Assembly: GCA_964348665.1 (NCBI GenBank)
Contig: CAYGDP010000002.1
Coordinates: 110,033-174,032 of the forward strand
DNA from: an uncultured Verrucomicrobiota bacterium
GTDB lineage: Bacteria; Verrucomicrobiota; Verrucomicrobiia; Palsa-1439; CAYGDP01
Direction of reading: 5' to 3'
DNA length: 64,000 nt
A program made the translations under genes and the position numbers. Shown one piece after another: positions 20,323-63,645 of this stretch (positions are counted from its first letter, which is position 1; each line of letters starts with the position of its first letter). The notes below the pieces were generated by a model. It was not told the DNA's origin. It made no database searches and saw only the letters and a program-made list of their open reading frames with translations.

Positions 20323-20370
20323 TTTTCATTTACTTTCCGGGGTTTACGCGTAGATTGTCCGCGCTTCGGT

Positions 20371-20444
20371 CGGGGCGTAGCGTAGCTTGGTAGCGCGCTT
20401 GGTTCGGGACCAAGAGGTCGCGGGTTCAAATCCCGCCGCCCCGA
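20371..20444 (+). tRNA. tRNA-Pro (anticodon CGG)
   Basis: Hand-folded cloverleaf: acceptor stem CGGGGCG/CGCCCCG plus discriminator A; D arm GCGT-AGCTTGGTA-GCGC; anticodon stem CTTGG/CCAAG with loop TTCGGGA (U33, anticodon CGG, G37); T arm GCGGG-TTCAAAT-CCCGC. No encoded CCA. Confidence 0.85.
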
Positions 20445-20454
20445 TTTTTTTCAT

Positions 20455-41399: not shown

Positions 41400-41601
41400 A
41401 AGGCGGCTTATGTCGGTAACACTATGGACATCGGTAGCACTCGATTTTTGGACATACGAGCCGGGCCATGGTCACAATGACAAATTTACCGAATTAAAAT
41501 CCGGTTCGTTGGATGCCCTCATAAGGTAAGGACAAAGAGCATGCAGCACATAAATGCAGAGTATCTTTGTAAAGATTAACCGTACTAAGGATAAAATAAG
41601 A

Positions 41602-42138
41602 ATGAATACGAATGATCCTTTCGGGAAAGTCATTTGGCAGGCTCAACAAGCGATAGACGACAGTGATTTCAATAAACTGAAAGACCTAATTGTTGAAAAC
41701 CTCTGGCTGAAAAATCCTTTGGAAGACACGGGGGGATCGCTCTTACACTACGCGGTAACGAACCGAAACCCTGGGGCTGTAGAATTCCTAATTTCCGAAG
41801 GTCTAGACGTAAACATGAAAGACCTAGAAAGTGTTAACACACCGCTCTTAATAGCGGTTGAAGAAGAAGACGCAGAAATAACAGAGTTACTCCTCCAGCT
41901 CGGCGCGGATGTAAACTGCCGAAATCCAAACGGGTGTACTCCTCTACACCTCGCAGCGAAGAGTGGGAATACTGAAATCGCAAAAATCCTGATTTTTTAC
42001 GAAGCGGATGTAAATGCTCGAGATATTTTCGACGGGTGGTCTCCCCTTGACTACGCGTTGGCAGAAGAACGATCAGGCGTTGCGGACATGCTTCGTAGGA
42101 GCGGGGCAAGACAGTTTGGCAAAGGGACCGACAAATGA
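41602..42138 (+). CDS. ankyrin-repeat protein, candidate immunity protein 1
   Basis: ATG at 41602 with RBS 'aagga'. Ankyrin repeats ('GGSLLHYAVTNRNPGAVEFLISEGLDVNMKD...', 'GCTPLHLAAKSGNTEIAKILIFYEADVN'). Immediately downstream of the RHS C-terminal module. Low GC. Confidence 0.7.
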   Translation: MNTNDPFGKVIWQAQQAIDDSDFNKLKDLIVENLWLKNPLEDTGGSLLHYAVTNRNPGAVEFLISEGLDVNMKDLESVNTPLLIAVEEEDAEITELLLQLGADVNCRNPNGCTPLHLAAKSGNTEIAKILIFYEADVNARDIFDGWSPLDYALAEERSGVADMLRRSGARQFGKGTDK

Positions 42139-42776
42139 GATTCCTGAAAAATTTTTTTGGATCGGTAAAAAAAACAGAGTCGCCGGCGGGTGGCACTGTT
42201 TTGGGGACGTTACTTCAAGCGAAGGAGGCGATTGACACGGAAAACGTTGTGACACTTGAGTCATTGTTGCGTAAACATCCCTCACTCGGCGAGGAACTTG
42301 ATGACTTGGGCTGGTCGCTATTGCATTATGCAGTGGCTCATTACAAGCTTCAGTCGATAGCGCGAATGCTCTCATGCGGATTGAACGTTAATATTTCCAC
42401 AAAGAATGGAAATTGTACGCCTTTGTTTTTTGCGTGTGCTGGGAATGGTCCAATAGAAATGGCACAACTGCTGATTGAACACGGAGCAGACGTTAATTGG
42501 AGAGACGAAGAAGGTGGAACAGCGCTTCATGCGGCAGCAAACCATAACCGAACAGACCTAATTACTCTTCTGATAGCAAAGGGATCTGAGGTAAATGTAA
42601 AAAGGAAGGCCGATGGATGGACTCCACTACATTGTGCAGATAATCTTGAGACGGTAAAGTTGCTCATAGAAAAAGGGGCAAATTCAGCAGCACGGGACAG
42701 GTGTCGACGCACGCGGATGGATATTGCAAGGGGAGCAAAGCAAAACGACATAGCCGAATTTTTGCAGAGATTGTAA
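42135..42776 (+). CDS. ankyrin-repeat protein, candidate immunity protein 2
   Basis: Start overlaps the previous stop (ATGA). Ankyrin repeats ('GWSLLHYAVAHYKLQSIARML', 'GNCTPLFFACAGNGPIEMAQLLIEHGADVN', 'GGTALHAAANHNRTDLITLLIAKGSEVN'). Confidence 0.7.
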   Translation: MRFLKNFFGSVKKTESPAGGTVLGTLLQAKEAIDTENVVTLESLLRKHPSLGEELDDLGWSLLHYAVAHYKLQSIARMLSCGLNVNISTKNGNCTPLFFACAGNGPIEMAQLLIEHGADVNWRDEEGGTALHAAANHNRTDLITLLIAKGSEVNVKRKADGWTPLHCADNLETVKLLIEKGANSAARDRCRRTRMDIARGAKQNDIAEFLQRL

Positions 42777-46699: not shown

Positions 46700-47734
46700 T
46701 CAACCTCCTCGGGCGAGGCTCTTTAAAAAATCCTTCCGCACACTATCCAACCCTTGCAGAGTTTCGACGCGAACCAACCGGATGTTCAATCGCTGTGCCG
46801 TCGGTCCGAGCAGTACGCCCGTTTCCGGCTGCTTAAACTGGATCTCTTGCGGAACGATTTTGTGTTCCTCGATTAGGTCCAACAATTTGGGGACAAACTT
46901 CTGAGGTGTGGTTCCCGACGATTCGAACTCAATCGCAAGTATGAAATCCGATTCCTGATCCACTACCATGCATACATAAGGGAAGAATGGTCTTGCGTCC
47001 TTCCCCTCTTGAACCGGCGAGGGCGAATAGAAAAAATCCAATTCCCAAATTTGTTTCTGCGGGTAGTTGGCGCGATGGATTCGAGAAATGCGATCTTCGT
47101 CCGGTTGGATCGGCTGAGGTGAGGGAGGTTTCCAATCTGGGAGTTCCAACCATTGATCTGTCCAAACAAGCTGCCCTCCCTCTTTCTGAGGAACCCTCAC
47201 GAGACAACGACCTCGATCAGGCGTCAGAAGGAACGGCGTTTCTTTGGTTCGCCGGCCAATTTCAATGGCTTGCTCAAGAACAACCGCTAGAAATCGTGTT
47301 TCGGAAGCATCTAGGAACCAAGGGAAATATCCCGGCGAGAAACTTCGGAATTGTGGCCACGCATGCTTGCCCGGAAAATTCATCCCGAGCGTTTTGATCA
47401 GATTTCGATTGGTTGAATTCAGCGCACTCCTTTCCTCAAACTCCACCATGAGGCATTTCATTATCACCAATAAATCGGTGTCGTCGTAGCCGAGATCGCG
47501 GGCAAACACCCGACGATAAGAGTGTAGCCCTTCTGCTCCCCGATAGACACTTAAACCAAAAACTTCTCCCAATTGCCCGAGCACACCGCAGTAACCGACC
47601 TCCCCGCTGTCGGGGTCTTGTACTCCGAAGAGATCACCGTCGCTCATCCATTTCCAGCATTCGATCTGGCGGAAGCGGTCCGCCGTCTCGTATAATCTCC
47701 GCCACTCGTCTAAGGATGGTTGCTTGTCATTCAC
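46700..47734 (-). CDS. hypothetical protein (344 aa)
   Basis: Long clean ORF upstream of and co-oriented with the second integrase. No recognised motif. Confidence 0.5.
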   Translation of the reverse strand: MNDKQPSLDEWRRLYETADRFRQIECWKWMSDGDLFGVQDPDSGEVGYCGVLGQLGEVFGLSVYRGAEGLHSYRRVFARDLGYDDTDLLVIMKCLMVEFEERSALNSTNRNLIKTLGMNFPGKHAWPQFRSFSPGYFPWFLDASETRFLAVVLEQAIEIGRRTKETPFLLTPDRGRCLVRVPQKEGGQLVWTDQWLELPDWKPPSPQPIQPDEDRISRIHRANYPQKQIWELDFFYSPSPVQEGKDARPFFPYVCMVVDQESDFILAIEFESSGTTPQKFVPKLLDLIEEHKIVPQEIQFKQPETGVLLGPTAQRLNIRLVRVETLQGLDSVRKDFLKSLARGG

Positions 47735-47807: not shown

Positions 47808-48950
47808 TTAGCGCGCAGTGGTTACCACTTTTCCACGAGTCTTTTGCTCAATCTGGTAAACTGTTTCTAGGTAGCTGCTCTGCATGGCGTTCATTCTATT
47901 TTCCAACCGCTGAATGGTTTCGTTCTTAATCTTCTCGGCTTGTTGGAGTTTAGTGAGCTCGTCTTTCAGGGTACCGATCTCGGTGTTGGTGAATTTGGTA
48001 TCGAGGTTCTTGTTTTCCATCCCCGCGCGTGAAATGTAGACGTCGGGCATGTTGCTGCTGAACCGCCATCCATAACGATAGCAAAGCTCTTGACGATTGA
48101 GTTGCGTTGCGTAGTGCGTCGCCGAGCTGTGGCGGAAGAGATGAGGATGGATTTCCTTTTTCAATATCTCATTGCCGAGCCTGCGTAGAAACATTCTCAT
48201 TCCTCCGTAGGTTGCCTTGAACACGGGATCGGTCGATTTGATTCCTTCGGCGATTCTCTCTTTGAGATATTCCCTGACGGCATCGAGGGAATGTCGCCAG
48301 TAGAGCGAAATCGTCCTGCCCTTGGTCTTGCTGTATTCCTCCTTGAGAGTGATTTTAACGAAATTATCTTTGCTCTCTGGCAAATGAACATCTTCGTAGC
48401 GGATATTGATAAATTCCTCTGCCCGCGCCCCTGAATCGAACAAAACAGCGATGATGAAGCGCTGTTCTGTCGTGCGACAGCCGCTGAATAACTTTTCCAC
48501 CTCTCGCTCAGAGAGATAATCTGGTGTCTTTTCCTTGTAGCGAGTGTCGAGCCAACCCACCAGTTTGATTGCTTTCACCTGCCCAAGTCGCCAGCGCATG
48601 AACACCTTGAACGCCTTTCGCAAATCGACTTTCGTAGAGTGAGAATAGGGAACTTTCTTGAGATGACTTCGGATTTTGTCCTGGCTCAGCGCTTTCTCGA
48701 ATTCTTCCACGTCCTTCAAGGTGATCTGCGCCGTCGGCTTGGCAAAGAATTGGAGCACGACCTTCAAGGAATCGAGATACCTCGCCCGTGAGGACTCCCC
48801 TACCTTTCGTCCCCGATTGATTCTTCCCAGTTCCAACTCCGAGATAAAACGCTGCACGTCTTTTTTGGTGGACTCAGGAACTTTCCACTTTACAACCCCC
48901 TTCAATTTTCCTGCTACCCCTTTGCCGTATGCTTGGATTTTGAGATTCAT
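47808..48950 (-). CDS. tyrosine-type site-specific recombinase/integrase (second copy)
   Basis: 'PHLFRHSSATHYATQ...LCYRYGW' catalytic region. N-terminal SAM-like and core-binding domains. Confidence 0.85.
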   Translation of the reverse strand: MNLKIQAYGKGVAGKLKGVVKWKVPESTKKDVQRFISELELGRINRGRKVGESSRARYLDSLKVVLQFFAKPTAQITLKDVEEFEKALSQDKIRSHLKKVPYSHSTKVDLRKAFKVFMRWRLGQVKAIKLVGWLDTRYKEKTPDYLSEREVEKLFSGCRTTEQRFIIAVLFDSGARAEEFINIRYEDVHLPESKDNFVKITLKEEYSKTKGRTISLYWRHSLDAVREYLKERIAEGIKSTDPVFKATYGGMRMFLRRLGNEILKKEIHPHLFRHSSATHYATQLNRQELCYRYGWRFSSNMPDVYISRAGMENKNLDTKFTNTEIGTLKDELTKLQQAEKIKNETIQRLENRMNAMQSSYLETVYQIEQKTRGKVVTTAR

Positions 48951-49214
48951 GTTTCCGGGCCACGACGGGCGGGTATTTAAGCTTTACGGGATTTGCACGC
49001 TTTTGTTCAATGGCCCCGAAGTACTTTGCACGAAAGCGTTCAAATCCCTGACCGATTCTCGGTCGTCCTCTTTATCCCGCACTGGTGTCGTAGAACCTCG
49101 CACCATTCCAAGTCAGTACTTCCAAGTATAAAAATCTTTCTGCTAAACACGGTCATGTCAATCTGCCAAGCATGGGACAACAATCTTTATAAACTCCGAC
49201 CTCACAGATATGAA

Positions 49215-49600: not shown

Positions 49601-49768
49601 CTACCCGACCGGAAAATCCTGCTCGAATTTTTTCTGGATGGATTTGAGGATTTTCAAAGCGGCTTCGAGGACTTCCGGGGAATACTGATCGAGATTCAAC
49701 GGGTCGGTAATTTCTGGCTGCACCTTCGGATCGGGCGACATCTTTTCCGGAATCTCTGCCTGCTTCAT
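49601..49768 (-). CDS. small hypothetical protein (55 aa), below the 60-aa ORF-track cutoff
   Basis: Hand translation 'MKQAEIPEKMSPDPKVQPEITDPLNLDQYSPEVLEAALKILKSIQKKFEQDFPVG' (ATG at 49768, TAG at 49601). Helical, protein-like composition. Confidence 0.25.
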   Translation of the reverse strand: MKQAEIPEKMSPDPKVQPEITDPLNLDQYSPEVLEAALKILKSIQKKFEQDFPVG

Positions 49769-49939
49769 AACGGACAAAAAACAAACCAGGTTTAAAAAGT
49801 TTCAACACAAACGATTCGGAAACTGGCGCTTAGGGCCAGATGTTTACCGCGACGCATTTGACTTCGTGCAGACAATTTCATATTCTTCGCACCGTGACCC
49901 TTTGCAAATACGCAGACCAACTCGAACCGGGGACAAGCG

Positions 49940-50506
49940 ATGATCTTACCTCTCAAATCTGACGCAACGGTCTATCAAATCAAGGTCACATTGAAAGACA
50001 CCCGCCCACCGATCTGGCGGCGTTTTCAGGTAACTGGCGAAACCCGCCTATCCAAACTGCACGATACTGTCCAGGTGGTAATGGGCTGGACGAATTCGCA
50101 TTTGCACGAATTTGTCATCGGCGACCGACATTACGGCGAGCCTGACGAGGACAGCCCGGACGAGCTCATCGACGAGAGGAACGTGCTCGTAAGTCAGGTT
50201 GTTGACCAAGAAGGGCAGACGTTTGGTTACGATTATGATTTTGGAGACGATTGGAATCATGAACTTTTGGTGGAGAAGATTCTTCCGAATGAAGCCGGGG
50301 TGCGCTACCCCCGGTGCTTGGAAGGCGCACGCGCGTGCCCTCCCGAAGACAGCGGAGGTCCATGGGGATATGAGGAAAAACTGCAAATTCTCAAGAATCC
50401 AGCCCATCCTAACCATCGCGAGATTGCAACGTGGATGAGGAAGAAATTTGACGCGGAGGCCTTCGATCTTAGCGCGACTAACAAGGCTCTAAAGTCAATT
50501 CGATAG
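49940..50506 (+). CDS. plasmid pRiA4b ORF-3 family protein
   Basis: 'YQIKVTLKDTRPPIWRRFQV...LHDTVQVVMGWTNSHLHEF' is the characteristic N-terminal signature of this family. Confidence 0.75.
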   Translation: MILPLKSDATVYQIKVTLKDTRPPIWRRFQVTGETRLSKLHDTVQVVMGWTNSHLHEFVIGDRHYGEPDEDSPDELIDERNVLVSQVVDQEGQTFGYDYDFGDDWNHELLVEKILPNEAGVRYPRCLEGARACPPEDSGGPWGYEEKLQILKNPAHPNHREIATWMRKKFDAEAFDLSATNKALKSIR

Positions 50507-50890: not shown

Positions 50891-51041
50891 AAGCAGATGG
50901 GTAGTTTTTTTAGCTCAAAAGGTTCGGAAAATTCTAGAAAAATGGGGTTCCCCTTTCTAGCCTGATGTTTGACCGATGCATATCGGTTTATTTTTTTGAG
51001 AATTTCGTGCGATGAACCCCACACATACTACGTATGTGTAT

Positions 51042-51383
51042 TCAGTCATACTTTTTGCGCAAGAAAATCCGATACGGGCGGTGTGTCTTGTTTCTGGCCG
51101 ACTGTGCGCGGTCGTAATAAACCAGCAGCTCGGAGTCTTTCGAGTCGAGCGGGACGGTATTGGCCAAAAAACGCAGGGCTAGGCCAACAGTGGAGGCACT
51201 GCGATTGCAGAGTTTCATGAGCCGTGAAAGGCTCAAAGGATACTGATAGCAAGACCGAGTACGATAGAGGATTTGGTAGTAAAAGACAATTTTTTGGTAA
51301 ACAAGCGCCAGAAGTTTCGCTTGCCGCTGATCGAGTTCCTCCACGATCCCCGACCTAATCCAAAGTCGCTTCTCCATTTCCAC
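51042..51383 (-). CDS. small helix-turn-helix-like protein
   Basis: 113 aa. 'LSRLMKLCNRSASTVGLALRFLAN' is HTH-like. Overlaps the end of the ATPase gene (same operon). Confidence 0.4.
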   Translation of the reverse strand: MEMEKRLWIRSGIVEELDQRQAKLLALVYQKIVFYYQILYRTRSCYQYPLSLSRLMKLCNRSASTVGLALRFLANTVPLDSKDSELLVYYDRAQSARNKTHRPYRIFLRKKYD

Positions 51384-52728
51384 CTCCCGCCAAAAAATCG
51401 TCTCCGACCGTTCCCTTCTTCACGGGCACGAGCGGAAACTTCACGTGAGAGGGCGAGATTCGGCCTTTGATTTTCACAATCCCTTCTCCCACGGCTAAAC
51501 GATCCAGAAATACCTCATCACCGAGCTCAAGAAAAAGAGCACGCTTGGCTGTCATGATGTCATCCTCGTGCTGCAATCCCAGATAAATCTGCGTGTTGGA
51601 ATTACCCAGCACATAGATCGGCAGCAGTGAAGGATGCTGAGTGATCGTGACCAATCCCTCGCCGAATCCACGGATTTCTCGGAAGACGTTTTCGAGGCTG
51701 TTGGACGCCTGTTTTTCAATATATGTCTTAGGAAAAAGATTGTGAACTTCCTCCAAGAAAGTGACGTGCCGCAAGCTTTCGGTCTCGCCCTGTCCCAAGC
51801 GATAGAGATGAATCCAGCGCAGGATGATGTCGCTAAAGAACACACGTAGCGGCTTGGGTAATTCTTGGTCGAGCTCGATGATGATGGGTTTTTCCAGAAG
51901 CTCTTCGAGCTTCAAGGGGTGTCTGGCATTAAACGCCCCACCCGAAGGGCCAAAGATAAAAGTTTTTAGGATTCTTGAACAACTATCCTGCCAGAGCATT
52001 CGACGCCCTCGGAAATGCAGGCGTTGTAGTTCCTCATTGGCGTCGAAGAAATTTGGATAACGCTCGAAAGTATTATCGTAGATTCCTGCTTTCTCGAACT
52101 CTTTGTCGAAAATCTCCATGAAAATATCCGCCACTCCCGGACCGGAAATGTGGGATTTCTCAAGCGCCTCAGCTACGACAGCAATCCAAGTTTTCGGATG
52201 AACACCGGGCGGAGCGCGCAGAGGATTCCAATTGAAAGAGGAAGCCGTTTTTCTACCAACAGAAAATATTTTCATCTCTTTCAGCTTCGGGTGCTCTAAA
52301 GTGAAAAGATCGCGATAGCTACGTTTCCAATCTACGACGAGAAAGGGGATGTCCCTTCCCAAGAGACCGAGCAAGAGAAGCTGTGCCACATTGGTTTTAC
52401 CGGCGCCTGTGATGGAAAAAATCCCAATATGCTTTAAGAAATTCTCTCGCGTCAGGTAGAGTGGATAGCAGGGCTTCTGATCATAAACGACCGTTCCAAG
52501 AAAAATCTCTCCCTTGGCAGCCTCGGCGGGCGGCGGGGGAAGCAGGATGGGCATTTTATCTACGGCTCCTCCCAAATGCTGCGCCGCGAAAATCTGTATC
52601 AACGACTCTGCTTCCCGCTTGGAATCGAGGGTCTCAGCCGTCGCGTAGCCCAGCCAGAGCATATCGGCTCGCTTGCCCACGATGGGTTTCAATTTCTTGC
52701 AAATGTCTTTAAGTTCACGATCCAGCAT
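51355..52728 (-). CDS. HerA/FtsK-superfamily (DUF87-like) P-loop ATPase
   Basis: Walker A 'FSITGAGKTNVAQLLL', Walker B 'IIIELDQE'. 457 aa. Confidence 0.7.
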   Translation of the reverse strand: MLDRELKDICKKLKPIVGKRADMLWLGYATAETLDSKREAESLIQIFAAQHLGGAVDKMPILLPPPPAEAAKGEIFLGTVVYDQKPCYPLYLTRENFLKHIGIFSITGAGKTNVAQLLLLGLLGRDIPFLVVDWKRSYRDLFTLEHPKLKEMKIFSVGRKTASSFNWNPLRAPPGVHPKTWIAVVAEALEKSHISGPGVADIFMEIFDKEFEKAGIYDNTFERYPNFFDANEELQRLHFRGRRMLWQDSCSRILKTFIFGPSGGAFNARHPLKLEELLEKPIIIELDQELPKPLRVFFSDIILRWIHLYRLGQGETESLRHVTFLEEVHNLFPKTYIEKQASNSLENVFREIRGFGEGLVTITQHPSLLPIYVLGNSNTQIYLGLQHEDDIMTAKRALFLELGDEVFLDRLAVGEGIVKIKGRISPSHVKFPLVPVKKGTVGDDFLAGGGNGEATLD

Positions 52729-53182
52729 GTTCGAGGAAAATCGCGCGGCCTTTGGACTGCTGATGGGTTTCCCAGATTTCCAGGAAATCCTTCATGACCA
52801 TCGCCACATCGCGCCAGCACTCGACCTCCTGTTGTCGACGCTCGGTCTGTAGATCGAAAAGCTGCTGATAAAATATGGATTTCTCGCTGTGTTCGCGAAG
52901 ATGGTAATTGGCAGCGTTATCGAGGCGATTTAGCATTTCTTGGACGGCTTCCTGCTGGGAATCCACACCTCGCAGATTGCGTCCCATCACATTCAATCGA
53001 ACCAGAATCTCTGCCGTGAGGACTTCCAGCTTGGTGTGGAGAAGCTTGGATTTCTGGTGGACGAGATTTTCTAAGTCAGATTCATCTAGGGAATCATTTT
53101 CGGGTTGCTGGGTTACATTGCTATACTGCGGTATACCGATTTCCGAAAGCCTTAAATAGGGTGATTTTTCCATGTTTTGCAC
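52715..53182 (-). CDS. coiled-coil hypothetical protein, first gene of the ATPase operon
   Basis: 155 aa, heptad-rich. Its stop overlaps the ATPase start. Confidence 0.45.
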   Translation of the reverse strand: MQNMEKSPYLRLSEIGIPQYSNVTQQPENDSLDESDLENLVHQKSKLLHTKLEVLTAEILVRLNVMGRNLRGVDSQQEAVQEMLNRLDNAANYHLREHSEKSIFYQQLFDLQTERRQQEVECWRDVAMVMKDFLEIWETHQQSKGRAIFLEHAGS

Positions 53183-53201
53183 TCCTAGGAGTACAAAAAC
53201 G

Positions 53202-53954
53202 ATGAATATAACTTCGTTCCCATCAAACAGTTCGGAAATTCAGCATCGGCGATTTTCCCAACCGATTGTATGCCAACTATTTTTATTGAAAATTGTGCGC
53301 CTCGCGATGGGCAAGCTCAACCAGCATCACCAATGGCTTATGCGAGGCAGTCAACGATGGGCAATCGCCGAAGTCTTGGTAAGACCCATGACTGGACTGG
53401 AAATCATGCGGGACTCTAGAAAACGCAATAGTCACATTCAAATGCCCGATGTTTTGTTTATCCTACACCAGCTCGAACAGAAGGGGCTGGCGTACTGCCT
53501 GAATCCGCAGCAAACGACTGGCAAGCTGTATTTTTGGACAAAGTTGGGAAGAGCAGTGATCTCAAAGCAATCTGGCCATATCCTTCGGGCCATCGACCGA
53601 AAAATCAATTGGAACCTCTACTCTTACATTGTACGCGCCAAAGTTCGACGCCGGGTGCTGCTGGAACTGTCAAAACTACAGGAAAACGAGGTGAAGGAGT
53701 TGACCACAACGAGAATCCGCAAATCCTTGAATACGAACTTTCCTATTGGACTGAATCCCACGATCCGAGCCCTGAAAGAGCTTTCGGATCTCATGCTGGT
53801 TCGGTGCGTCGGATTTACCGAGAAACGGAACCTGAAGATTTACCAATTGACGGAAATCGGCGAAAGAATCGCAGACAATTTACGTCAACCAGTCGTCGCT
53901 CTTGCTGTGGATAGGTCATCAGACCTGCGACAACCATTGGGAAAACCTTTTTAA
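53202..53954 (+). CDS. hypothetical protein with two winged-helix-like segments
   Basis: Divergent from the ATPase operon (the ORF track's start at 53172 overlaps it, ATG at 53202 does not). 'WAIAEVLVRPMTGLEIMR' and 'RVLLELSKLQENEVKELT' are wHTH-like. Confidence 0.4.
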   Translation: MNITSFPSNSSEIQHRRFSQPIVCQLFLLKIVRLAMGKLNQHHQWLMRGSQRWAIAEVLVRPMTGLEIMRDSRKRNSHIQMPDVLFILHQLEQKGLAYCLNPQQTTGKLYFWTKLGRAVISKQSGHILRAIDRKINWNLYSYIVRAKVRRRVLLELSKLQENEVKELTTTRIRKSLNTNFPIGLNPTIRALKELSDLMLVRCVGFTEKRNLKIYQLTEIGERIADNLRQPVVALAVDRSSDLRQPLGKPF

Positions 53955-53976: not shown

Positions 53977-54660
53977 ATGGGTGGGAAATATTATGCGCCA
54001 TTGGCCTACGTCGAGAAATATTACCGCGAGGACGCCGAAGATGATGTCCGCTTTCCAAAGGAAGCGAAGTTTTGGCGGTCGTTTTTGAAGCAAGTGCAAG
54101 GCAAGTCCGTTTTGAGCGTGGGATGCGGACCGCAATTTTACGATGATTGCCAATTTTTCAAGAGCGTGCCGAAGGAATATGTCGGAATGGACGTGAACCG
54201 AGCAGTTTTTGATTTCTTGCGCAGCTCGACTCATACGAGACTGATAAATGGGAAGAAATACGCCGCGCGCCACGGCATTCGGACGAAACTGATCTGCGGA
54301 GACATCACTCGATATTGCATGAGGTTTATGGAGCGATTCGATACAATCCTTGCTGTGGGGGTGTTGGGAAACTTCGGTGAGGAAAAACTTGGCCAACTGG
54401 TAGAATATCTCCATGAGTATCTGAAAAAAGGCGGATTGCTGATTAACGTGGAATGGACGGACTGCCATCTGCCTACTAGGGAATTCCATAAAAAATTGCA
54501 GTACCGTTTTTACGCCGACCGAGTTCCTAGCATGGAGACGATCGCGAAGATTCTCAAGGAGAAAGGCTTCTCAATTGAACGGCAAGCGGTATTCGACGTG
54601 GAGAATCCAAAGGCATACGGCTGGGGAAAAATCTACGGCTACGTTGCCAGGAAGCGATAG
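53977..54660 (+). CDS. class I SAM-dependent methyltransferase
   Basis: Motif I 'SVLSVGCGPQ', acidic motif II 'YVGMDVN'. 227 aa. Confidence 0.65.
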   Translation: MGGKYYAPLAYVEKYYREDAEDDVRFPKEAKFWRSFLKQVQGKSVLSVGCGPQFYDDCQFFKSVPKEYVGMDVNRAVFDFLRSSTHTRLINGKKYAARHGIRTKLICGDITRYCMRFMERFDTILAVGVLGNFGEEKLGQLVEYLHEYLKKGGLLINVEWTDCHLPTREFHKKLQYRFYADRVPSMETIAKILKEKGFSIERQAVFDVENPKAYGWGKIYGYVARKR

Positions 54661-54700
54661 GGGTCTTGAATCGAACGCTTCTCGCTGATACAACGCCAGT

Positions 54701-55552
54701 GTGAAACTCTTGAGTGTATCCCGCGACATTGGCATTGAGATGCGCGACCTCGTGCGGCTAGAGAAGAAGCGGAGCCGATACCACGTGATTAAGCTCTATC
54801 GGCATGCACATTTGGGCAAGATTCTTTTCATGGACGGCCAAATCATGCACGTCGAAGCCTGGGCGCCTCTCTATCACGAACCGCTCGTGCATCTGCCAAT
54901 TGCATTTCAGAAAAGGCCAGTAAGCGTATTGATCCTTGGGGGTGGATCGTTTTTTGCCGCGCACGAAGTTCTGAAATACAAATCTATCAAACGAGTCTTG
55001 ATGGTAGAACATGATGATGCAGTCATGGAACTGACTCGCAAATACTATTCGCACGCAAGAAAATGCTTGGCCGATCCTCGACTGGAGGTGCGTTGCTGCG
55101 ATGCTTATCGGTTTGAAATGACTTCGACTGAAAAATTTGATCTGGTTGTAAACGATGGAGTCGATCTTCTTTCGCTTGTCGGACATAAGGCTATATCATC
55201 GCCCTTTGAGAGGATGGCAGACTTGCTCACACCGACAGGAATCTGTTCGGATGTTATCGATAGGCATTTATTTGAGCGCTCATGGATAGCGAAGACGATT
55301 AAAGAAGTTACCAGTCGGCACCGAGTTTCCGTTTCCATTCTACCTATTCCCGAATACCCAGGAACTTTGCATGCTTTGGTTCTTTGGGGCCGCGACAAAC
55401 AACTTAGTCAGGAGCTCAAGCGTCCTGTTAACCTCGAACAGCGGAAATGGATCGATTCTCCCCAATCAAACCCATGTTCGTATTACGATCCTCGCCAATT
55501 GTCGCATTATTTATTTTTACCGCCTTACGCGCAACGTTTGCTGGCGCGATGA
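54701..55552 (+). CDS. spermidine-synthase (PABS)-like protein with a degenerate signature
   Basis: 'ILFMDGQIMHVEAWAPLYHEPLVHLP' and 'VLILGGGSFFAAHEVLKY' parallel PABS '...YHE...HLP' and 'VLIIGGGDGGVLREVL', but the conserved GGGDGG aspartate is replaced. Confidence 0.55.
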   Translation: MKLLSVSRDIGIEMRDLVRLEKKRSRYHVIKLYRHAHLGKILFMDGQIMHVEAWAPLYHEPLVHLPIAFQKRPVSVLILGGGSFFAAHEVLKYKSIKRVLMVEHDDAVMELTRKYYSHARKCLADPRLEVRCCDAYRFEMTSTEKFDLVVNDGVDLLSLVGHKAISSPFERMADLLTPTGICSDVIDRHLFERSWIAKTIKEVTSRHRVSVSILPIPEYPGTLHALVLWGRDKQLSQELKRPVNLEQRKWIDSPQSNPCSYYDPRQLSHYLFLPPYAQRLLAR

Positions 55553-55981: not shown

Positions 55982-56344
55982 ATGAACGTATGTACTCTCT
56001 CCGGGAAACTCGTGGATAATGCCGTGGTCAATGGAGCAGAATTCAAAGCTCTGTTTTTCACGGTGCTCACGAAGTACGGATACAACACAACGGAGAAGAA
56101 GGATCGCGTGGCGTATGTACCCTGCGTCATGTGGAATCCAAACCAGGAGATTGAAAAACTCCTCGTCGAAAACGGCAAAGGCCTATGGATCGAAGTCGAA
56201 GGTAGGGTCGCTCGTTCCAGTTATGAAGAGAACGGTCAGCGTAAATTCAACACTGAAGTCGTTGTGAAGAATCGGACGTTGAACGTGCTCAAGAGAAACG
56301 GAACGGGACACGGTGAGTCTATCGAGAAAGGAGCATCGCAATGA
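55982..56344 (+). CDS. SSB-like OB-fold protein 1
   Basis: ATG at 55982 with RBS 'aaaggagaaaac'. 'MNVCTLSGKLV...LWIEVEGRVARSSYEENGQRKFNTEVVVKN' parallels SSB 'IEGRL..R.W.D..G.KR..TEIVV'. No acidic C-terminal tail. Confidence 0.6.
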   Translation: MNVCTLSGKLVDNAVVNGAEFKALFFTVLTKYGYNTTEKKDRVAYVPCVMWNPNQEIEKLLVENGKGLWIEVEGRVARSSYEENGQRKFNTEVVVKNRTLNVLKRNGTGHGESIEKGASQ

Positions 56345-56694
56345 ACGTGTGTATCCTTTCTGGATGGCTCATGAACAACGCCCTCGCTCCAAAAACAGAA
56401 TCCCATGCCTTGTTTTTTACCTTGGTCACAAAATTCGGGTATGACAAGGCGGCTAGGAGGAATCTGATTACTGGTGTGCGGTGCGTGATGTTCGATCCGT
56501 CGCCTGAGATCGAGAAACTGCTGGTTGAGAAGGGAAAGAAGCTGGCAGTGGAAACAGAGGGTTACGTTCGCTTTTGGCGCTACAATGCCAAGGGCGGGTG
56601 TAAACTCGAAGCGGAAGTTGTCGTCAAAAACGACAGCTTTACGGTGTGGAGGCGGTTTCAAGGTCGAGCTTCCCAGAAAGGAGGCTCGCCATGA
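56341..56694 (+). CDS. SSB-like OB-fold protein 2 (paralog of the upstream gene)
   Basis: Start overlaps the upstream stop (ATGA). 'MNVCILSGWLM...LAVETEGYVRFWRYNAKGGCKLEAEVVVKN'. Confidence 0.6.
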   Translation: MNVCILSGWLMNNALAPKTESHALFFTLVTKFGYDKAARRNLITGVRCVMFDPSPEIEKLLVEKGKKLAVETEGYVRFWRYNAKGGCKLEAEVVVKNDSFTVWRRFQGRASQKGGSP

Positions 56695-57152
56695 ATGCGC
56701 TAGCGCAGCCCAAGGAATACAAAGTAGTTGCCTTGCGGGAATGCCCAACACCGATGGAACTGCAATCGTGCGATTGCCCTAGCAAAGCAGCCGAGTATTG
56801 GAATCGGAACGTCATCACGGCGTCTTATTTCAATCCCGACTGCGAGTGCTTTGTAGTGGTGATGCTCAATACCAAGAACCGCGTCAAAGGCCATTATTTG
56901 GTTTCATTTGGCACAGTTAACGCGAGCTTGGTACACGCTCGGGAAGTATTTCGAGCGGCCATCATTGCAGGTTCGACGAGCGTCTTGCTGATGCACAATC
57001 ACCCCAGCGGTGATCCGACACCTTCAAGCGAGGATGTCCGCATCACCAAGCAACTGGTTCAAGCAGGCAAGATTCTCGGCATTGAAGTCATGGACCACGT
57101 GATTGTCGGTTATGACAAGCACGTTTCACTTAAGGAGTTGGGACTGTTGTAA
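56691..57152 (+). CDS. RadC-like JAB-domain (DUF2466) protein
   Basis: RBS 'aaaggagg'. 'LLMHNHPSGDPTPSSEDVRITKQL...GIEVMDHVIV' is the JAMM/RadC signature. Confidence 0.85.
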   Translation: MNALAQPKEYKVVALRECPTPMELQSCDCPSKAAEYWNRNVITASYFNPDCECFVVVMLNTKNRVKGHYLVSFGTVNASLVHAREVFRAAIIAGSTSVLLMHNHPSGDPTPSSEDVRITKQLVQAGKILGIEVMDHVIVGYDKHVSLKELGLL

Positions 57153-59125: not shown

Positions 59126-60202
59126 ATGAAGAATGAAAGTATCACGTTGTATTACCGTGAAGGTTCATCGGACAAAGTTTATCAAGCGGCCATTGAAGAA
59201 AAGAACGGCGGGTTCGTCGTTAACTTCGCCTTTGGCCGTCGGGGCAGCACGTTACAGACGGGGACGAAAACAGCATCACCTGTAAGCTTCGAGGAAGCAA
59301 AGCGGGTCTATGACAAACTGGTAGCTTCCAAGGTCGGAAAGGGTTACACACCGGGCGCAGACGGGACTCCTTACGCGCAAACCGAAGAAGCAGGACGCGT
59401 AAGCGGGTTTCTGCCGCAGTTGTGTAATCCAGTCAGAGAGGACGAGGTTGCGTGCATCCTCCCTGACAAAAGCTATTGGATGGAAGAAAAGTTCGACGGA
59501 AAGCGCATGTTGCTTCGCAAAGAAGGACAGAACGTTGTCGGCATCAATCGGAAGGGTCTGGTTGTTGCATTGCCGCAGCCGTTGATTATGGCAGCGCAAA
59601 AGTATGACGAGAGCTTCCTGCTCGATGGCGAATGCGTCGGAGAGACGCTTCACGTCTTCGACTTGCTCCTCCTGAACGGCGAGAAAATGGTAGGTCTCGC
59701 GATGTGTGAACGGCGACACACATTGGAGGAGCTGCTGCAGATTGACGATCCGCACTTGTTGCTCGTTGAGACAGAGAAATCGGTGGCGGGAAAGGCTGAG
59801 AAGTTTACCTACTTCAAAGCCATGCGAAAAGAAGGCGTCGTGTTCAAGCGATACAACGCCCCTTACGCTCCAGGACGGCCTGCCAATGGTAGCGGATGGT
59901 TCAAGCACAAATTCGTCACAAGTGGATCGTTCATAGTGAGCCGTGTGAACGCCGATCGCCGCAGCGTCGGTCTTGAAGTATTCGAGGAGAGAAAACGCAT
60001 CGGAGTCGGCAATGTCACGATACCCGTTAACGCCGAAGTGCCAATAGTAGGCGACATCATCGAGGTACGTTACCTCTACGCCTATCGTGGTGGGAGTCTG
60101 TTTCAACCCGTGTATCTGGGACCGCGAGATGATCTCTCGTTGCTCGATTGCACGGTGCGAGAGTTGAAGTATCGCGCAGAAGATAGTGAAGAAGAGGCAT
60201 AA
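59126..60202 (+). CDS. WGR-domain / ATP-dependent DNA ligase fusion protein
   Basis: ATG at 59126 with RBS 'aaaggaa'. N-terminal WGR-like domain ('ITLYYREGSSDKVYQA...FAFGRRGSTLQTG...EEAKRVYDKLVASKVGKGY'). Ligase motifs: I 'EEKFDGKR', III 'LLDGE', IV 'EGVVFKR', V 'GWFKHKF', VI 'PVYLGPRDD'. Confidence 0.85.
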   Translation: MKNESITLYYREGSSDKVYQAAIEEKNGGFVVNFAFGRRGSTLQTGTKTASPVSFEEAKRVYDKLVASKVGKGYTPGADGTPYAQTEEAGRVSGFLPQLCNPVREDEVACILPDKSYWMEEKFDGKRMLLRKEGQNVVGINRKGLVVALPQPLIMAAQKYDESFLLDGECVGETLHVFDLLLLNGEKMVGLAMCERRHTLEELLQIDDPHLLLVETEKSVAGKAEKFTYFKAMRKEGVVFKRYNAPYAPGRPANGSGWFKHKFVTSGSFIVSRVNADRRSVGLEVFEERKRIGVGNVTIPVNAEVPIVGDIIEVRYLYAYRGGSLFQPVYLGPRDDLSLLDCTVRELKYRAEDSEEEA

Positions 60203-60301
60203 GCCTTTTTCTTCTGGGATTAGGTCGAGACGCCGTGCCCTGCGGCGTCCGATCTACTTCTCATCTAAAAAATCAGAAATCCAAAACAGAAAGGAAAATG
60301 T

Positions 60302-60697
60302 ATGTGCATCAATTGGAAAATAATTCACAAGTACACTCGTGCTGATGCAATCAGAGACGGAGTGCTTGTGGACTTGCGACAGGGAGAGTTGGCAGAGGTC
60401 GTTGAGAATGCCGGGATCAAAGTTCCAGTGGCAATGACGCGTACTGCATTCGAGCGTTATGTTTCACTAACGCAAGCAGCACAGGAAGCGGGCAACGACA
60501 TAAAGGGTCGGCTCTGGGACATCCTTTGGATGTATCGGTGCGCCGCGCAGAAGAATCCTCATGAAAGCGTGATGTGCTTTTCATTCTACTGCGTCGTGGA
60601 TCAGCCTAAGCCGAAAAAGTGCGAGATCAAGGTAATAGTCGGTCCAGGAGACGATCCTGCGCCCGTATTGACGTTCCTGCTACCCAAAGAAGATTGA
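60302..60697 (+). CDS. hypothetical protein
   Basis: 131 aa, in the same operon between the ligase and ArdC-like genes. Confidence 0.4.
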   Translation: MCINWKIIHKYTRADAIRDGVLVDLRQGELAEVVENAGIKVPVAMTRTAFERYVSLTQAAQEAGNDIKGRLWDILWMYRCAAQKNPHESVMCFSFYCVVDQPKPKKCEIKVIVGPGDDPAPVLTFLLPKED

Positions 60698-60777
60698 GCG
60701 CTAGGCGGCTTAGCTTTCATGCAAGGCCCGGCGGTCATTCAAAATTCAGAAAAAAATCAAACCGAAAGGAAAATACC

Positions 60778-61668
60778 ATGAACAAAGTGTATGAAATTGT
60801 CACGCAACGTATCATCAATGCGTTGGAACAAGGAGAAATCCCGTGGCGACCGCGATTCAGCGTTGACAAAGGCTTGCCACGCAACGCCGTCTCGAAAAAG
60901 CCCTATCGGGGCGTTAATCTCCTGTTGCTCTGGCTTGCTAGATATCAGGACAATCGCTTCCTGACGTTTAAGCAAGCAAAGGAAATGGGCGGGGAAGTAA
61001 AGAAGGGAGAGCACGGTTGGCCGGTAATCTTTTGGAAACTCCAAGAGATAGACGAAACCATCCCAAGCACGGGAGAGTTAAAGCAAGTTCCTGTGTTGAG
61101 ATACTACACCGTGTTCAATGTATCGCAGTGCAGTGGATTGGGCTTGCCAAAGATTATTGAGGTGAGTGAGTTCACGCCTATTGAAATGGGCGAGCGCATT
61201 CTCCTCGGCTATCCCAATCCGCCCTGCGTCTTCTATGGAAAAGGCTGCGGTTGTTATCGGCCGTCCGATGACATTGTGGAGATGCCGCGCCCTGAAACGT
61301 TCCAGAAAAATGAGCACTACTACTCCGTGCTTTTCCACGAGCTAGTGCATAGCACAGGACACGCGAAGCGGCTAAATCGCGAGGAAATAGCCACGCCAAA
61401 GAAATTCGGCAGCGAGCCGTACTCACGCGAGGAACTCGTCGCCGAACTTGGTTCTGCGTTTCTCTGTGCGGAGTGCGGAATCGAGCAAGACACGTTGGAG
61501 GATCATGCCGCCTACATTCAAGGTTGGCTCAAGCGACTCAAAGATGATTCGCGTTTGATCGTGTTGGCTGCTGCCGCTGCACAGCGCGCCGCTGATCACA
61601 TTCTTGCGCGGACCTTTGAGTCAGTGGAAAGCTCCGCTGAAACTGCCGCGCCAATGCTCGTATCGTAA
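60778..61668 (+). CDS. ardC: ArdC-like antirestriction protein (N-terminal ssDNA-binding DUF1738-like + C-terminal zincin metallopeptidase)
   Basis: ATG at 60778 with RBS 'aaaggaaaa'. 'IPWRPRFS...PYRGVNLLLLW' N-domain and HExxH 'FHELVHSTGH' C-domain. Confidence 0.8.
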   Translation: MNKVYEIVTQRIINALEQGEIPWRPRFSVDKGLPRNAVSKKPYRGVNLLLLWLARYQDNRFLTFKQAKEMGGEVKKGEHGWPVIFWKLQEIDETIPSTGELKQVPVLRYYTVFNVSQCSGLGLPKIIEVSEFTPIEMGERILLGYPNPPCVFYGKGCGCYRPSDDIVEMPRPETFQKNEHYYSVLFHELVHSTGHAKRLNREEIATPKKFGSEPYSREELVAELGSAFLCAECGIEQDTLEDHAAYIQGWLKRLKDDSRLIVLAAAAAQRAADHILARTFESVESSAETAAPMLVS

Positions 61669-62001: not shown

Positions 62002-63645
62002 TCATTTTTTTCTCCGTGCCGGTCTTTTACCGGAACGAACCAAAGCAAGCCGCTGTTTTTTAAGCGCCATGTGAAATTCGTAATCTTCGCTTGCTTCGCG
62101 CAAGATGTAAGATTGATGCGCTAAACGATCAGGATACCTCGGAAGTGCCTCTTGCTTGCGCTTAGCCCAAGTAATGATTTCGCCTTGCTCTTTTCTCGGA
62201 AGCATTGGGAATAGGTCGAAGTATCGCCGAGAGGAAATACCTGAGAATTGCTTGAAGTGAACAAATCTCGAAAGAGGTTCACTGTCATCGACATCAACTT
62301 TTATCGAGTCAGAATGGTGCTCTTGTGCAAAACTTTTTGGATAAGGTTCCGTATAGATCACCTGACGGATTCCAGCCGCAACGATATGCCTGGCACAAAC
62401 GTGGCAGGGAAAGGTCGTGGTGTATAACGTAGCTCCGTCTACTCGAACTCCGCGCCGTGCCGCATCCATTAACGCGGCCATCTCCGCATGCACCGTACGT
62501 GCAAACTCCCCTACCTGCATAAGTGTTCCATCCCCAATTAAACTTAGAATTTCTTGTTCTTTATTCTTCTTAAATGTTTTGGCATTTAAATCCAAGATTC
62601 CTTTGTGGAGCAGTCTCTTTTTATAAAACTTTTCTAACAACTCAAAGAGCCCGGTTTTTTTAACAGTAGTGCCAACATCTGCCCCCAGACGGAAATCACG
62701 GGCATCGCCTTCGTCGCCATTCCAATATTGACCTCCACCGGCTTTGGGTACTTCGTTTGTTCCAACTGATATTATTGATCCATCAGGATCCACAATGGCT
62801 GCCCCAACTTGGCGTGATAAATCTGCAGAACGGAACGCAGCAGACTGGGCAAAAAACATTCCATACTCCTGCCTCGATGGAGAATGGCTCGGATGACGGA
62901 ACAGAAGTTGAACGTATCTTTGAACCGAGATGCGCATTTCCTCAGGATCTCCTACATCTACGAATAGGTCAGCTTTAGAAAATGTGTCGCGCATATTCTG
63001 GCCGAAATCAGCGTATTCTTCTTTTTCATCGCGTTGAATTAACGATTGGGCGATCGGGCGGGACCGATCAGATCTCGGATCCCGTTTTGAATCTGCGATC
63101 CGTTTCGCGAGTCTTAGAACCCTGGACTCCCGTGGTGAGTACGCTGAGATCAAATGAAAGGCATCGCAGTATACCTGTCGGAGGAGTCTTGCCTCATCCG
63201 GATGCTTCAAAGATCTAAGTAGGAATGCAAGATTCGGTACGGGCTTATTCTCGTATTTCCAAAAATCCCTTGGGCCCTTCGGTTGAGGCGGAGGAATTGG
63301 CCTCTTAAATCTTTTCCTCCAGTAAGAGTATCGAATGTCGCGTATCTGATTTATGGCAACAAGTGCCAAGGCATCTCCGCGCTTAAGGGTTTTCCTTAGT
63401 TTATTGCCTGCGTCCATGTGTAAAGTGATCCTTGTATCCTCAGGACTAAGCGGGAGATTCTTCCACTTCCGGAATTGATGCAATAATTCAGCGAGATGTA
63501 TCTCCTGGGTCTTATATCCTACTTCGGAGAGCGAATCTGTAATGGCTTGAGAAACCTCCGTGAGGCCGGCACCTAACGGACCGGCTAAAGCGAAGAATAA
63601 CTCTGGTCTCTCTGACGTGCTGATTTGTTTTTGTTTGAATTCCAT
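62002..63645 (-). CDS. nucleotide-kinase-like + CMP/dCMP-deaminase-domain protein, resembling anti-phage dCTP deaminase (DCD) defence proteins
   Basis: ATG at 63645 with RBS 'gaaagga'. N-terminal P-loop-like 'FFALAGPLGAGLTEV'. C-terminal zinc-deaminase 'HAEMAALMDAARRG...TFPCHVCARHIVAAGIRQVIY' (H-A-E ... P-C-x-x-C). Confidence 0.6.
   Translation of the reverse strand: MEFKQKQISTSERPELFFALAGPLGAGLTEVSQAITDSLSEVGYKTQEIHLAELLHQFRKWKNLPLSPEDTRITLHMDAGNKLRKTLKRGDALALVAINQIRDIRYSYWRKRFKRPIPPPQPKGPRDFWKYENKPVPNLAFLLRSLKHPDEARLLRQVYCDAFHLISAYSPRESRVLRLAKRIADSKRDPRSDRSRPIAQSLIQRDEKEEYADFGQNMRDTFSKADLFVDVGDPEEMRISVQRYVQLLFRHPSHSPSRQEYGMFFAQSAAFRSADLSRQVGAAIVDPDGSIISVGTNEVPKAGGGQYWNGDEGDARDFRLGADVGTTVKKTGLFELLEKFYKKRLLHKGILDLNAKTFKKNKEQEILSLIGDGTLMQVGEFARTVHAEMAALMDAARRGVRVDGATLYTTTFPCHVCARHIVAAGIRQVIYTEPYPKSFAQEHHSDSIKVDVDDSEPLSRFVHFKQFSGISSRRYFDLFPMLPRKEQGEIITWAKRKQEALPRYPDRLAHQSYILREASEDYEFHMALKKQRLALVRSGKRPARRKK

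Follow-up and report, generated by a model that had tools for sequence, protein, structure and literature searches.

What would a soluble DNA motor do for a mobile element that encodes no recognizable apparatus for moving DNA from cell to cell? The question is raised by three overlapping genes in a stretch of 64,000 nucleotides from an uncultured Verrucomicrobiota bacterium (contig CAYGDP010000002.1; the whole stretch is called the window below), which together encode a coiled-coil protein, an ATPase of the HerA/FtsK kind and a small winged-helix protein. The first-pass annotation, made from the letters alone, took this operon for a candidate defence or DNA-processing system. The best explanation as a whole, which we hold tentatively, is that the operon is backbone equipment of an integrative element and not part of its cargo, and that the ATPase is a motor acting on the DNA of the element. 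A broader statement, that the motor serves propagation of the element rather than defence of the host, also covers roles in DNA transfer and in assisting recombination, and this we consider probable.

The arrangement of the genes is as first described. Three open reading frames (ORFs) called mechanically on the minus strand, at 52715-53182 (155 aa, GTG start), 51355-52728 (457 aa) and 51042-51383 (113 aa, GTG start), overlap at their boundaries. Public gene calls, read together with the sequence, move the likeliest start of the coiled-coil gene to a later ATG than the mechanical GTG, and that of the small gene to an ATG with a Shine-Dalgarno motif GGAGG 5 nt upstream (Table 1). The ATG of the ATPase gene then lies within the final codons of the coiled-coil gene (ATGCTGGATCGTGA), with an overlap of 14 nt, while the ATPase and small genes share 23 nt, or 29 nt if the GTG start of the small gene is used. 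This is a classic arrangement for translational coupling, and the start of the small gene is predicted to be coupled to the end of the ATPase gene. The three genes are far from being chance ORFs, because word-indexed searches found many clusters of homologues for each (at least 580 for the ATPase, at least 336 for the small protein and at least 53 for the coiled-coil protein) and because synteny of the trio is kept in 19-20 of the 20 related loci, most of which are from Verrucomicrobiota. None of the three proteins has a name in any public source examined, and their homologues carry generic names only ('DNA helicase HerA-like ATPase', 'ATP-binding protein', 'DUF87 domain-containing protein', 'hypothetical protein').

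The sequence and the predicted structure of the central protein identify it as a soluble motor of the FtsK/HerA superfamily with intact catalytic motifs, and it appears to be catalytically competent. The label of a DUF87/HerA-like ATPase that it had been given is borne out by the Pfam DUF87 model (40.8 bits against a cut-off of 23.2), although HerA_C stays slightly under its cut-off and AAA_10, which had been suggested as a further check, is not matched. Among the NCBIfam models the highest score belongs to CedD, at 71 bits against a cut-off of 600 (E = 6e-20) and over the C-terminal core only; the helicase_HerA equivalog reaches 26 bits against a cut-off of 970. A profile of the ATPase family compared with the Protein Data Bank (PDB) finds HerA-type ATPases best (E from 1e-18 to 1e-12, with HerA itself at about 2e-18), then DptH (1e-7), whereas VirB4, FtsK and IcmO are far weaker (1e-4 to 4e-3; FtsK 2e-4). 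The motifs comprise the previously noted Walker A GAGKT at residues 108-112, a Walker B LEE at 325-327, the arginines R350/R353 and Q364, and in relatives of 30-78% identity G108, G110, K111, E326, E327, R350/R353 and Q364 are invariant or nearly so.

The AlphaFold2 (AF2) model of the ATPase (predicted local distance difference test, pLDDT, 87; predicted TM-score, pTM, 0.86) begins with a three-helix bundle at residues 2-51, followed by a proline-rich linker and a beta hairpin at 75-92, and its RecA-like core holds a four-helix insertion at residues 178-258. Compared with the PDB by Foldseek, the model gives 157 fold matches with E <= 1e-3, and all of the best 50 belong to the FtsK/HerA superfamily. 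The best match of the core by both profile and fold is HerA of the archaeal HerA-NurA pair (Sulfolobus 4d2i, Thermococcus 9x1m; Foldseek E = 6e-15), with which it has in common the Walker A, Walker B, arginine and Q motifs and a helical insertion. The likeness is confined in extent: the TM-score is only 0.55, the window ATPase has its N-terminal bundle and no HAS beta-barrel is seen in the model, and NurA was not found in the window or in the seven neighbourhoods that we annotated. Sulfolobus HerA, the C-domain of DndH, the defence HerAs, TrwB and VirB4 are in fact about equally distant (TM-scores 0.55-0.75), and by sequence and model the ATPase cannot be placed in any of the HerA, VirB4, type IV coupling protein (T4CP), FtsK or packaging clades. 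Hydropathy gives no membrane segment in any of the three operon proteins; in the ATPase the highest 19-residue score, 1.8, comes from the buried helix that follows Walker A, and the N-terminus contains no transmembrane segment.

The two partners differ strongly in charge. The coiled-coil protein is acidic (net -8), and its earlier label has indirect support as a prediction: heptad a/d positions are occupied in 6-7 of 8 cases in the central third, and the Pfam Apg6 coiled-coil model matches weakly (E = 0.057). The small protein is strongly basic (net +12), and the earlier description of it as helix-turn-helix-like agrees with its AF2 model (pLDDT 85), a predicted DNA-binding winged helix of topology beta-beta-helix-helix-helix-wing in which helices at 17-37, 50-57 and 61-73 precede the strands. 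Its fold neighbours are MarR/MepR, ArsR/SmtB, ScpB and LexA-N, with probabilities up to 0.9 and E > 0.07, so that no single match is significant, and it has no sequence match in Pfam, PADLOC, PHROG or the PDB.

To ask what is constant around the operon, we compared the window with 20 related loci (14 from GTDB genomes and 6 long metagenomic contigs, given by L numbers below), 21 sequences in all, and annotated seven of the neighbourhoods with Pfam. The coiled-coil gene is present in all 19 sequences that extend upstream and the small gene in 20 of 21; with median identities of 71% and 66% the ATPase and the small protein are the best-conserved genes of the neighbourhood. A divergent regulator gene accompanies them in 15 of the 21 sequences and a tyrosine recombinase in 16, mostly 0.4-2.5 kb downstream of the small gene and on the same strand. 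The recurrent accessory backbone consists of SSB, a DnaG-type primase, RadC, DUF3150, DUF1257, DUF2997 and an AAA+ protein, sometimes with ArdC and a ligase (the ligase also in L003 and L112, ArdC also in L031). The trio thus travels with the divergent regulator, usually the integrase, and genes of the SSB/primase type. Two metagenome-assembled genomes (MAGs) carry two copies each, and in the one pair compared fully, L010 and L013, these are 96% identical over 10.3 kb; the MAGs that hold family members at 66-74% identity are labelled Verrucomicrobiota, Acidobacteria, Hydrogenedentes and Victivallaceae. In L029 the integrase end of the block has host glycosyltransferase and Wzy genes within about 0.5 kb, with only two short unannotated ORFs between.

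The defence genes near the operon behave differently, being non-homologous between loci: SIR2 and a deaminase in the window, an MmeI-type methylase and an SNF2/PLD protein in L031, and Dam/N4-N6 methylases with a TIR-TPR protein in L112. A complete Qat-like set (KAP NTPase, QatB, a 446-aa protein and TatD DNase; L113:4666-9458), encoded on the same strand as the operon, is even inserted between regulator and coiled-coil gene, which points to a cargo hot spot inside the control region. The divergence of the conserved genes is correlated. In Mantel tests on pairwise divergence with 2000 permutations, the ATPase co-diverges with the regulator (r = 0.69, p = 0.0005), the coiled-coil protein (r = 0.63, p = 0.0005), the small protein (r = 0.57, p = 0.0005), SSB (r = 0.54, p = 0.003) and the integrase (r = 0.40, p = 0.003). 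It is the constancy of the block, its co-divergence and the variability of the defence genes, taken together, that lead us to regard the operon as conserved backbone of the element and the defence genes as exchangeable cargo.

Relatives of the ATPase extend far beyond this family. An exhaustive search of 1.84 billion cluster representatives gave 4383 relatives at E <= 1e-3 and 311 at E <= 1e-30, and those at 30-55% identity are mostly longer, 650-710 aa. At the C-terminus they are extended by a winged helix resembling MarR and by a PD-(D/E)xK domain in which H, E, D and ExE residues are invariant; this fused nuclease matches weakly, most often Hjc/AHJR-like resolvases (Hjc in 5 of 20 members) and otherwise Mrr, CoiA, Cas4 and AF1548. 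Homology of the 111-aa winged helix to the fused one is not supported, as hhalign found nothing. The coiled-coil protein tells another story. In 54 of 80 metagenomic loci with a long relative, a same-strand upstream gene of 150-200 aa is homologous to the coiled-coil gene of the window (hhalign probability 98.1%, E = 1.2e-13; common C-terminal motif E-x-x-C-W-x-D). Because this homologue is kept upstream of the long relatives, the coiled-coil protein and the ATPase are the ancient core of the system, and the acidic protein is an ancient partner of the ATPase lineage. An Orc1/Cdc6-type AAA+ initiator lies nearby in 26 of the 80 loci and a tyrosine recombinase in 21; replication and integration genes are the habitual company of the core. 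One distant nuclease-fused relative, P0352 (996 aa), has an extra C-terminal DHH/DHHA1 (RecJ-like) domain. In L061, L062 and L072 (about 12.7-17.7 kb) a conserved cluster of Prok-E2_D, JAB and ThiF/E1-like genes follows the long-type ATPase gene; L061 and L062 also encode proteins with type IX secretion system tails upstream, so the long relatives are not archaeal only.

These comparisons bear directly on the possibility that the element carries the operon for defence or exclusion, in which case a HerA-type complex would sense or attack incoming phage or plasmid DNA, the effector in the distant relatives being the fused PD-(D/E)xK nuclease. Several observations agree with the defence emphasis of the first-pass annotation. 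The mobile island it described is there, with the integrase, ArdC, the deaminase, SIR2 and others around the operon, and the fold of the ATPase is shared with SIR2-HerA (Nezha), DUF4297-HerA, the C-domain of DndH/DptH, TdpA and mad8 of MADS, the DndH C-domain giving the tightest superposition of all (target-normalized TM-score, TMt, 0.75; root-mean-square deviation 3.8 Å). A restriction-endonuclease-fold domain fused in relatives fits an effector, and in L114 the block stands without the other backbone genes. Yet the PADLOC search proposed as a check returns weak matches to the core only: HerA and mad8 at E of about 1e-9 for the window ATPase, with mad8 best (3.6e-9, 34.6 bits), and mad8, HerA and DndH at no more than 54 bits for the long relatives (mad8 down to 3e-15). 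No PADLOC model is matched by the coiled-coil protein, the small protein or the partners of the long relatives, and the scores are far from family level. The usual partners of the defence ATPases (SIR2, DUF4297, DndFG, MAD6/7) are absent from the operon; the SIR2_2 gene is about 12 kb away, beyond the end of the window, and was not found in the other loci. The MacSyFinder model of MADS requires MAD6, MAD7 and MAD8 jointly (bioRxiv 10.1101/2023.03.30.534895). Membership in MADS was rejected: there is only a weak mad8-like core, and neither the partners nor the regulator match any other mad model. The window clade has no nuclease or other effector, the distant relatives adjoin Orc1/Cdc6 and integrase genes and not restriction-modification or Cas genes, and the operon, a constant block that co-diverges with integrase and SSB, looks like conserved backbone, not variable cargo. 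We therefore consider a defence role unlikely, and rank it just behind export of DNA, discussed below. Of the original proposal the DNA-processing half remains fair, while its emphasis on defence is disfavoured by the comparative data. If the operon did serve defence, it would be a new HerA-type system of an unusual, effector-less form.

If the operon is instead equipment for propagation, the role that we prefer is in autonomous replication of the excised circle, where it would serve loading or unwinding alongside the DnaG-type primase and SSB. The preference is due to three observations: the primase has a Zn-ribbon and a Toprim domain and lacks a helicase domain, no other conserved helicase was found in the backbone, and the distant relatives stand beside Orc1/Cdc6. 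It is a weakly supported possibility, and we advance it more cautiously than the backbone reading itself. In such a scheme the ATPase would form a ring, which the winged-helix protein would bring to a specific site on the element DNA; in the distant relatives the fused winged helix and nuclease would take the position of the winged-helix protein. The coiled-coil protein may act as an assembly or regulatory adaptor on the unusual N-terminal helical bundle of the ATPase, and the complex would pump or unwind element DNA after excision.

A HerA/FtsK-type DNA motor of a mobile element is of a known kind, and not surprising in principle. HerA-like ATPases recur beside integrases and winged helix-turn-helix (wHTH) proteins in integrated elements of archaea (arCOG00280; Makarova et al., 2014, PMC4158269), and have been proposed as the DNA-pumping or helicase enzymes of these elements (PMC4158269; for the pT26-2 ATPase, PMC6972569). 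The window ATPase is likened to them by description only. Neither paper mentions a coiled-coil partner or a fused wHTH-nuclease, and the pT26-2 ATPase is accompanied by many membrane proteins (PMC6972569), none of which is found with the window operon. In the literature searched on the DUF3150/DUF1257/DUF2997 set, on elements with HerA, Cdc6 and integrase, and on DUF87 in defence, the module is not described. What is undescribed in the literature searched is the coiled-coil partner, the helical bundle at the N-terminus, the alternation of a separate winged helix with a fused one that is joined to a nuclease, and the element family.

Several observations weigh against a backbone motor for replication. 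To our knowledge, no HerA/FtsK-family ATPase is a replicative helicase of a mobile element. In the nine loci compared 3' of the small gene there are no consistent iterons or origin-like repeats, the sole recurring features being the inverted repeats before the integrase and a promoter-like unit. The ends of the element could not be recognized in the 73.6 kb covered, where the 3' end of tRNA-Pro does not recur and direct repeats between the flanks do not exceed 16 nt (the far end lies beyond this region). Integrase is lacking within 10 kb in 3 of the 21 loci, and the block of L114 lacks the other backbone genes. The closest structural and profile neighbours include the defence ATPases DndH, SIR2-HerA, DUF4297-HerA and mad8, and shared host ancestry could be a partial cause of the co-divergence. 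Finally, the set of SSB, ArdC, RadC, primase and methylase genes is just as typical of DNA entering cells by conjugation, which speaks for a role in transfer.

The last point leads to the rival that we would consider first, although it is unlikely: that the ATPase is a motor for DNA export or mobilization like TraB, TdtA or a coupling protein, with the winged helix marking the transfer site and the ATPase either handing the DNA to the secretion apparatus of a helper or pushing it out directly. TraB of the actinomycete integrative and conjugative elements (AICEs) of Streptomyces and TdtA of Thermus ICETh1 are single-ATPase DNA transfer systems, and the AICE layout comprises an integrase, replication genes and a single ATPase of the FtsK/HerA family. 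The archaeal Ced system, with CedB and CedD, offers a similar comparison for single-ATPase import or transfer (PMC11868833). The window operon resembles such systems in that an ATPase of this superfamily is encoded on an integrating element beside integrase and replication genes, and it shares with FtsK-gamma and TraB a winged helix associated with the motor. Its other backbone genes (SSB, ArdC, RadC, primase and orphan methylases) are of the leading-region type. The fold of the ATPase is as similar to TrwB (1e9s; TM 0.59/0.63) and VirB4 (4ag5; TMt 0.72), which have in common with it an all-alpha insertion in the nucleotide-binding domain, as it is to HerA. Relatives give weak Pfam matches to P-loop_TraG, TrwB_AAD_bind and FtsK_SpoIIIE; the last is unmatched by the window ATPase, and reaches 25.7 bits (cut-off 24) in P0300 and 19.1 bits in P0352.

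The export explanation meets a difficulty at the membrane. The operon proteins have no transmembrane or membrane-associated region; the membrane anchor of FtsK, SpoIIIE and TraB, the N-terminal anchor of TrwB and the N-domain of VirB4 are not seen, and the winged helix is a separate, unrelated protein from a coupled gene. No CedA/VirB6-like or other membrane partner was found for the ATPase. The earlier observation that no relaxase or VirB4 accompanies the operon stands: Pfam annotation gives no relaxase, type IV secretion system (T4SS), capsid or terminase family in the window and the following 10 kb, and no relaxase, T4SS, pilus or membrane-protein gene was seen there or in the seven neighbourhoods. 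The NCBIfam conjugation models score far under their cut-offs for the window ATPase. The hosts are moreover diderm, and we know of no single-ATPase transfer of double-stranded DNA in diderms except the Thermus case.

The proximity of the integrase suggests a third explanation, in which the operon helps the recombinase much as FtsK helps XerCD: the winged helix would position the motor, which would control the direction or completion of excision or the resolution of dimers, and resolution of the junction would fall, in the distant relatives, to the Hjc-like nuclease. The commonest gene order, coiled coil, ATPase, wHTH and integrase on one strand at the short spacing given above, is what would be expected, and the commonest weak matches of the fused nuclease are Holliday-junction resolvase families. 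An excisionase is usually a small basic winged helix encoded upstream of the integrase, which is the position of the small gene. The same explanation has difficulty with L003, L005 and L029, whose integrase lies on the opposite side and strand, and with the three loci that lack it nearby. Between operon and integrase there are a separate promoter-like unit and a hairpin, and the Hjc-type matches are all below threshold. We regard a helper of the integrase as improbable.

An FtsK/HerA-type packaging ATPase, as in membrane-containing double-jelly-roll viruses or a satellite of one, was considered as well, since the viral packaging family belongs to the same superfamily, the ATPase has weak PHROG matches (an unknown family at 9e-13, terminase at 7e-5) and many neighbouring ORFs are without annotation. 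The reading was rejected after a search of viral folds, and is very improbable. The enzymes of PH1, corticovirus, Sulfolobus turreted icosahedral virus (STIV) and African swine fever virus (ASFV) match the core only (query-normalized TM-score, TMq, 0.19-0.38), the best viral fold matches being non-packaging HerA/VirB4-like phage proteins, and at 457 aa the window ATPase is about twice the size of the packaging enzymes (about 200-250 aa). There is no capsid, portal or terminase family in the seven neighbourhoods. Close relatives of the ATPase are absent from the IMG/VR and INPHARED viral collections; scans of viral contigs with single proteins found nothing, and a profile scan found only HerA-like genes at 22-27% identity. 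Among the PLSDB plasmids there is no match, and among the INPHARED phages a single one at 22% identity.

A bolder form of the propagation reading would make an unrecognized ancient machine of the coiled-coil protein and the HerA-like ATPase, joined by a winged helix that is either separate or fused along with an Hjc-like nuclease. The machine would be central to a large class of integrating elements lacking relaxase, T4SS and capsid, and would give them an undescribed way of replicating or of moving DNA between cells. This class would span the Verrucomicrobiota elements and the Orc1/Cdc6-carrying elements of sediment metagenomes; we find it rather doubtful, if less so than export. Verrucomicrobiota and their relatives are abundant in soil, water and gut, and almost nothing is known of how their mobile elements replicate and spread. 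As the most conserved part of an element family with varied defence and anti-defence cargo, the operon is a practical marker for such islands and their cargo hot spots. If the motor does drive replication or transfer without relaxase, T4SS or capsid, a new mechanism would join the few routes of element propagation, and bacterial elements would be linked to Orc1/Cdc6-carrying elements that use a nuclease-fused version of the machine.

The features of the operon and its element are collected in Table 1.

Table 1. Features of the operon and of the element around it, by position in the window (a point in the strand column marks features without strand)
Feature	Position	Strand	Details
Tyrosine recombinase, element integrase	47808..48950	-	380 aa; Pfam Phage_integrase E = 6e-12; PHROG integrase
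Inverted repeat	48988..49048	.	23-nt arms, 15-nt spacer; immediately upstream of integrase gene
Third promoter-like unit (TTCCGAATCGTTTGTGTTGAAACTTTTTAA)	49792..49821	-	faces 55-aa ORF (49601-49768) and integrase gene
Hairpin (ACACATAC-GTA-GTATGTGT)	51021..51039	-	perfect 8-bp stem, 3-nt loop; directly 3' of small-gene stop
Small basic winged-helix gene	51042..51377	-	111 aa from ATG 51377; GTG 51383 gives 113 aa
HerA/FtsK-fold P-loop ATPase gene	51355..52728	-	457 aa; Pfam DUF87, AF2 model, Foldseek
Coiled-coil partner gene	52715..53173	-	152 aa from ATG 53173 (public gene call); GTG 53182 gives 155 aa
Divergent control region, operon/regulator	53174..53309	.	back-to-back promoter-like units
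Divergent regulator-like gene	53310..53954	+	two winged-helix regions; 214 aa from M47
SSB, 117-aa ORF and RadC/JAB	55982..57152	+	backbone genes; SSB 55982-56344, RadC/JAB 56691-57152
WGR and ATP-dependent DNA ligase, DUF6573 and ArdC	59126..61668	+	ligase 59126-60202; DUF6573 60302-60697; ArdC 60778-61668

The operon and the divergent regulator gene face away from a common control region. The regulator gene begins at 53172 in the mechanical ORF and at 53202 in the public call, but an alignment of the upstream regions of 13 loci moves the likely start to about 53310. Its matches to Pfam are sub-threshold (PadR, E = 6e-4; EarA, E = 2e-3), and neither the regulator nor the small-protein profile gives any match in sequence searches against solved structures. 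The same alignment contains the conserved blocks GTTAATAAA, TTCGGA, TTCCGAA and AAGCTTTTAA, and within these two promoter-like units, one toward the regulator and one toward the operon, that consist of a TTCCGAA-like box, a spacer of 17-19 nt and a TTTTAA/TTATAT/TTATTA-like box. These units probably act as promoters. A near-perfect 24-bp palindrome at 53175-53198 (arms TTTTGCACTCCTAG and CTAGGAGTACAAAA) overlaps the Shine-Dalgarno of the coiled-coil gene. As an operator of the whole family it was rejected, since it is not conserved in the other loci; it may serve locally as an operator, or form a hairpin that covers the ribosome-binding site.

Motifs of the same promoter-like kind are repeated ahead of the integrase and SSB operons. 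The unit before the integrase is the sole strict match in 73.6 kb, and a unit just 3' of the small gene is also present in L004, L007, L008, L010, L013, L029 and L030. Inverted repeats with arms of 23-27 nt upstream of the integrase occur also in L031 (11940-11992) and L007 (11940-12002); those of the window and L031 are alike, of the type TTGAAC…GTGCAA, whereas L007 has another inverted repeat there. The hairpin after the small gene is likely to be the 3' end of the operon transcript, a terminator role suggested by its position and its stem even though no T-run follows.

To the left of the operon lie PRiA4_ORF3, the 55-aa ORF and the integrase gene. The PRiA4_ORF3 gene (49940-50506) is on the opposite strand, inserted between the small gene and the integrase, and a DUF7309/DUF6930 gene (46700-47734) adjoins the integrase on its other side; both are plasmid- or island-associated families. 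To the right, directly downstream of the regulator, genes for an S-adenosylmethionine (SAM) methyltransferase (227 aa) and a spermidine-synthase-like protein (283 aa) occupy 53977-55552 and are absent from the related loci. The ArdC product is an anti-restriction protein/metallopeptidase. A gene at 62002-63645 for a 547-aa deaminase (dCMP_cyt_deam_1/MafB19-like) opens a dense run of defence-type genes, which continues past the window end (L016:1-9895) with PDDEXK, nucleoside 2-deoxyribosyltransferase, SIR2_2, DUF6884 with GIY-YIG, QueC and Vsr, and also holds a response regulator, HATPase_c_3 and a Dcm-type methylase. A different kind of insertion is seen in L030 (1044-5649), where three consecutive tyrosine recombinase genes stand beside a DnaG-type primase split into two ORFs; this recombinase trio resembles a secondary element that has inserted into the backbone.

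The first 20 kb of the window are chromosomal, with DnaE, PSCyt1/PSCyt2/PSD1, DUF1501 and LacI, a set typical of Planctomycetes and Verrucomicrobia, and the G+C content drops past 40 kb from about 0.55-0.62 to about 0.48-0.52. Between these points, after a tRNA-Pro(cgg) gene (20370-20445), come a second tyrosine recombinase (20523-21743), a NusG-like gene (21963-22505) and a giant ORF of 6177 aa (22866-41399) with PKD, Calx-beta, He_PIG, Big_9 and SdrD_B repeats, which together resemble a separate island, or an adhesin locus, that has inserted at the tRNA gene. Two adjacent ankyrin-repeat genes (194 and 213 aa; 41554-42776) mark the drop in G+C content, between the giant gene and the element of the operon.

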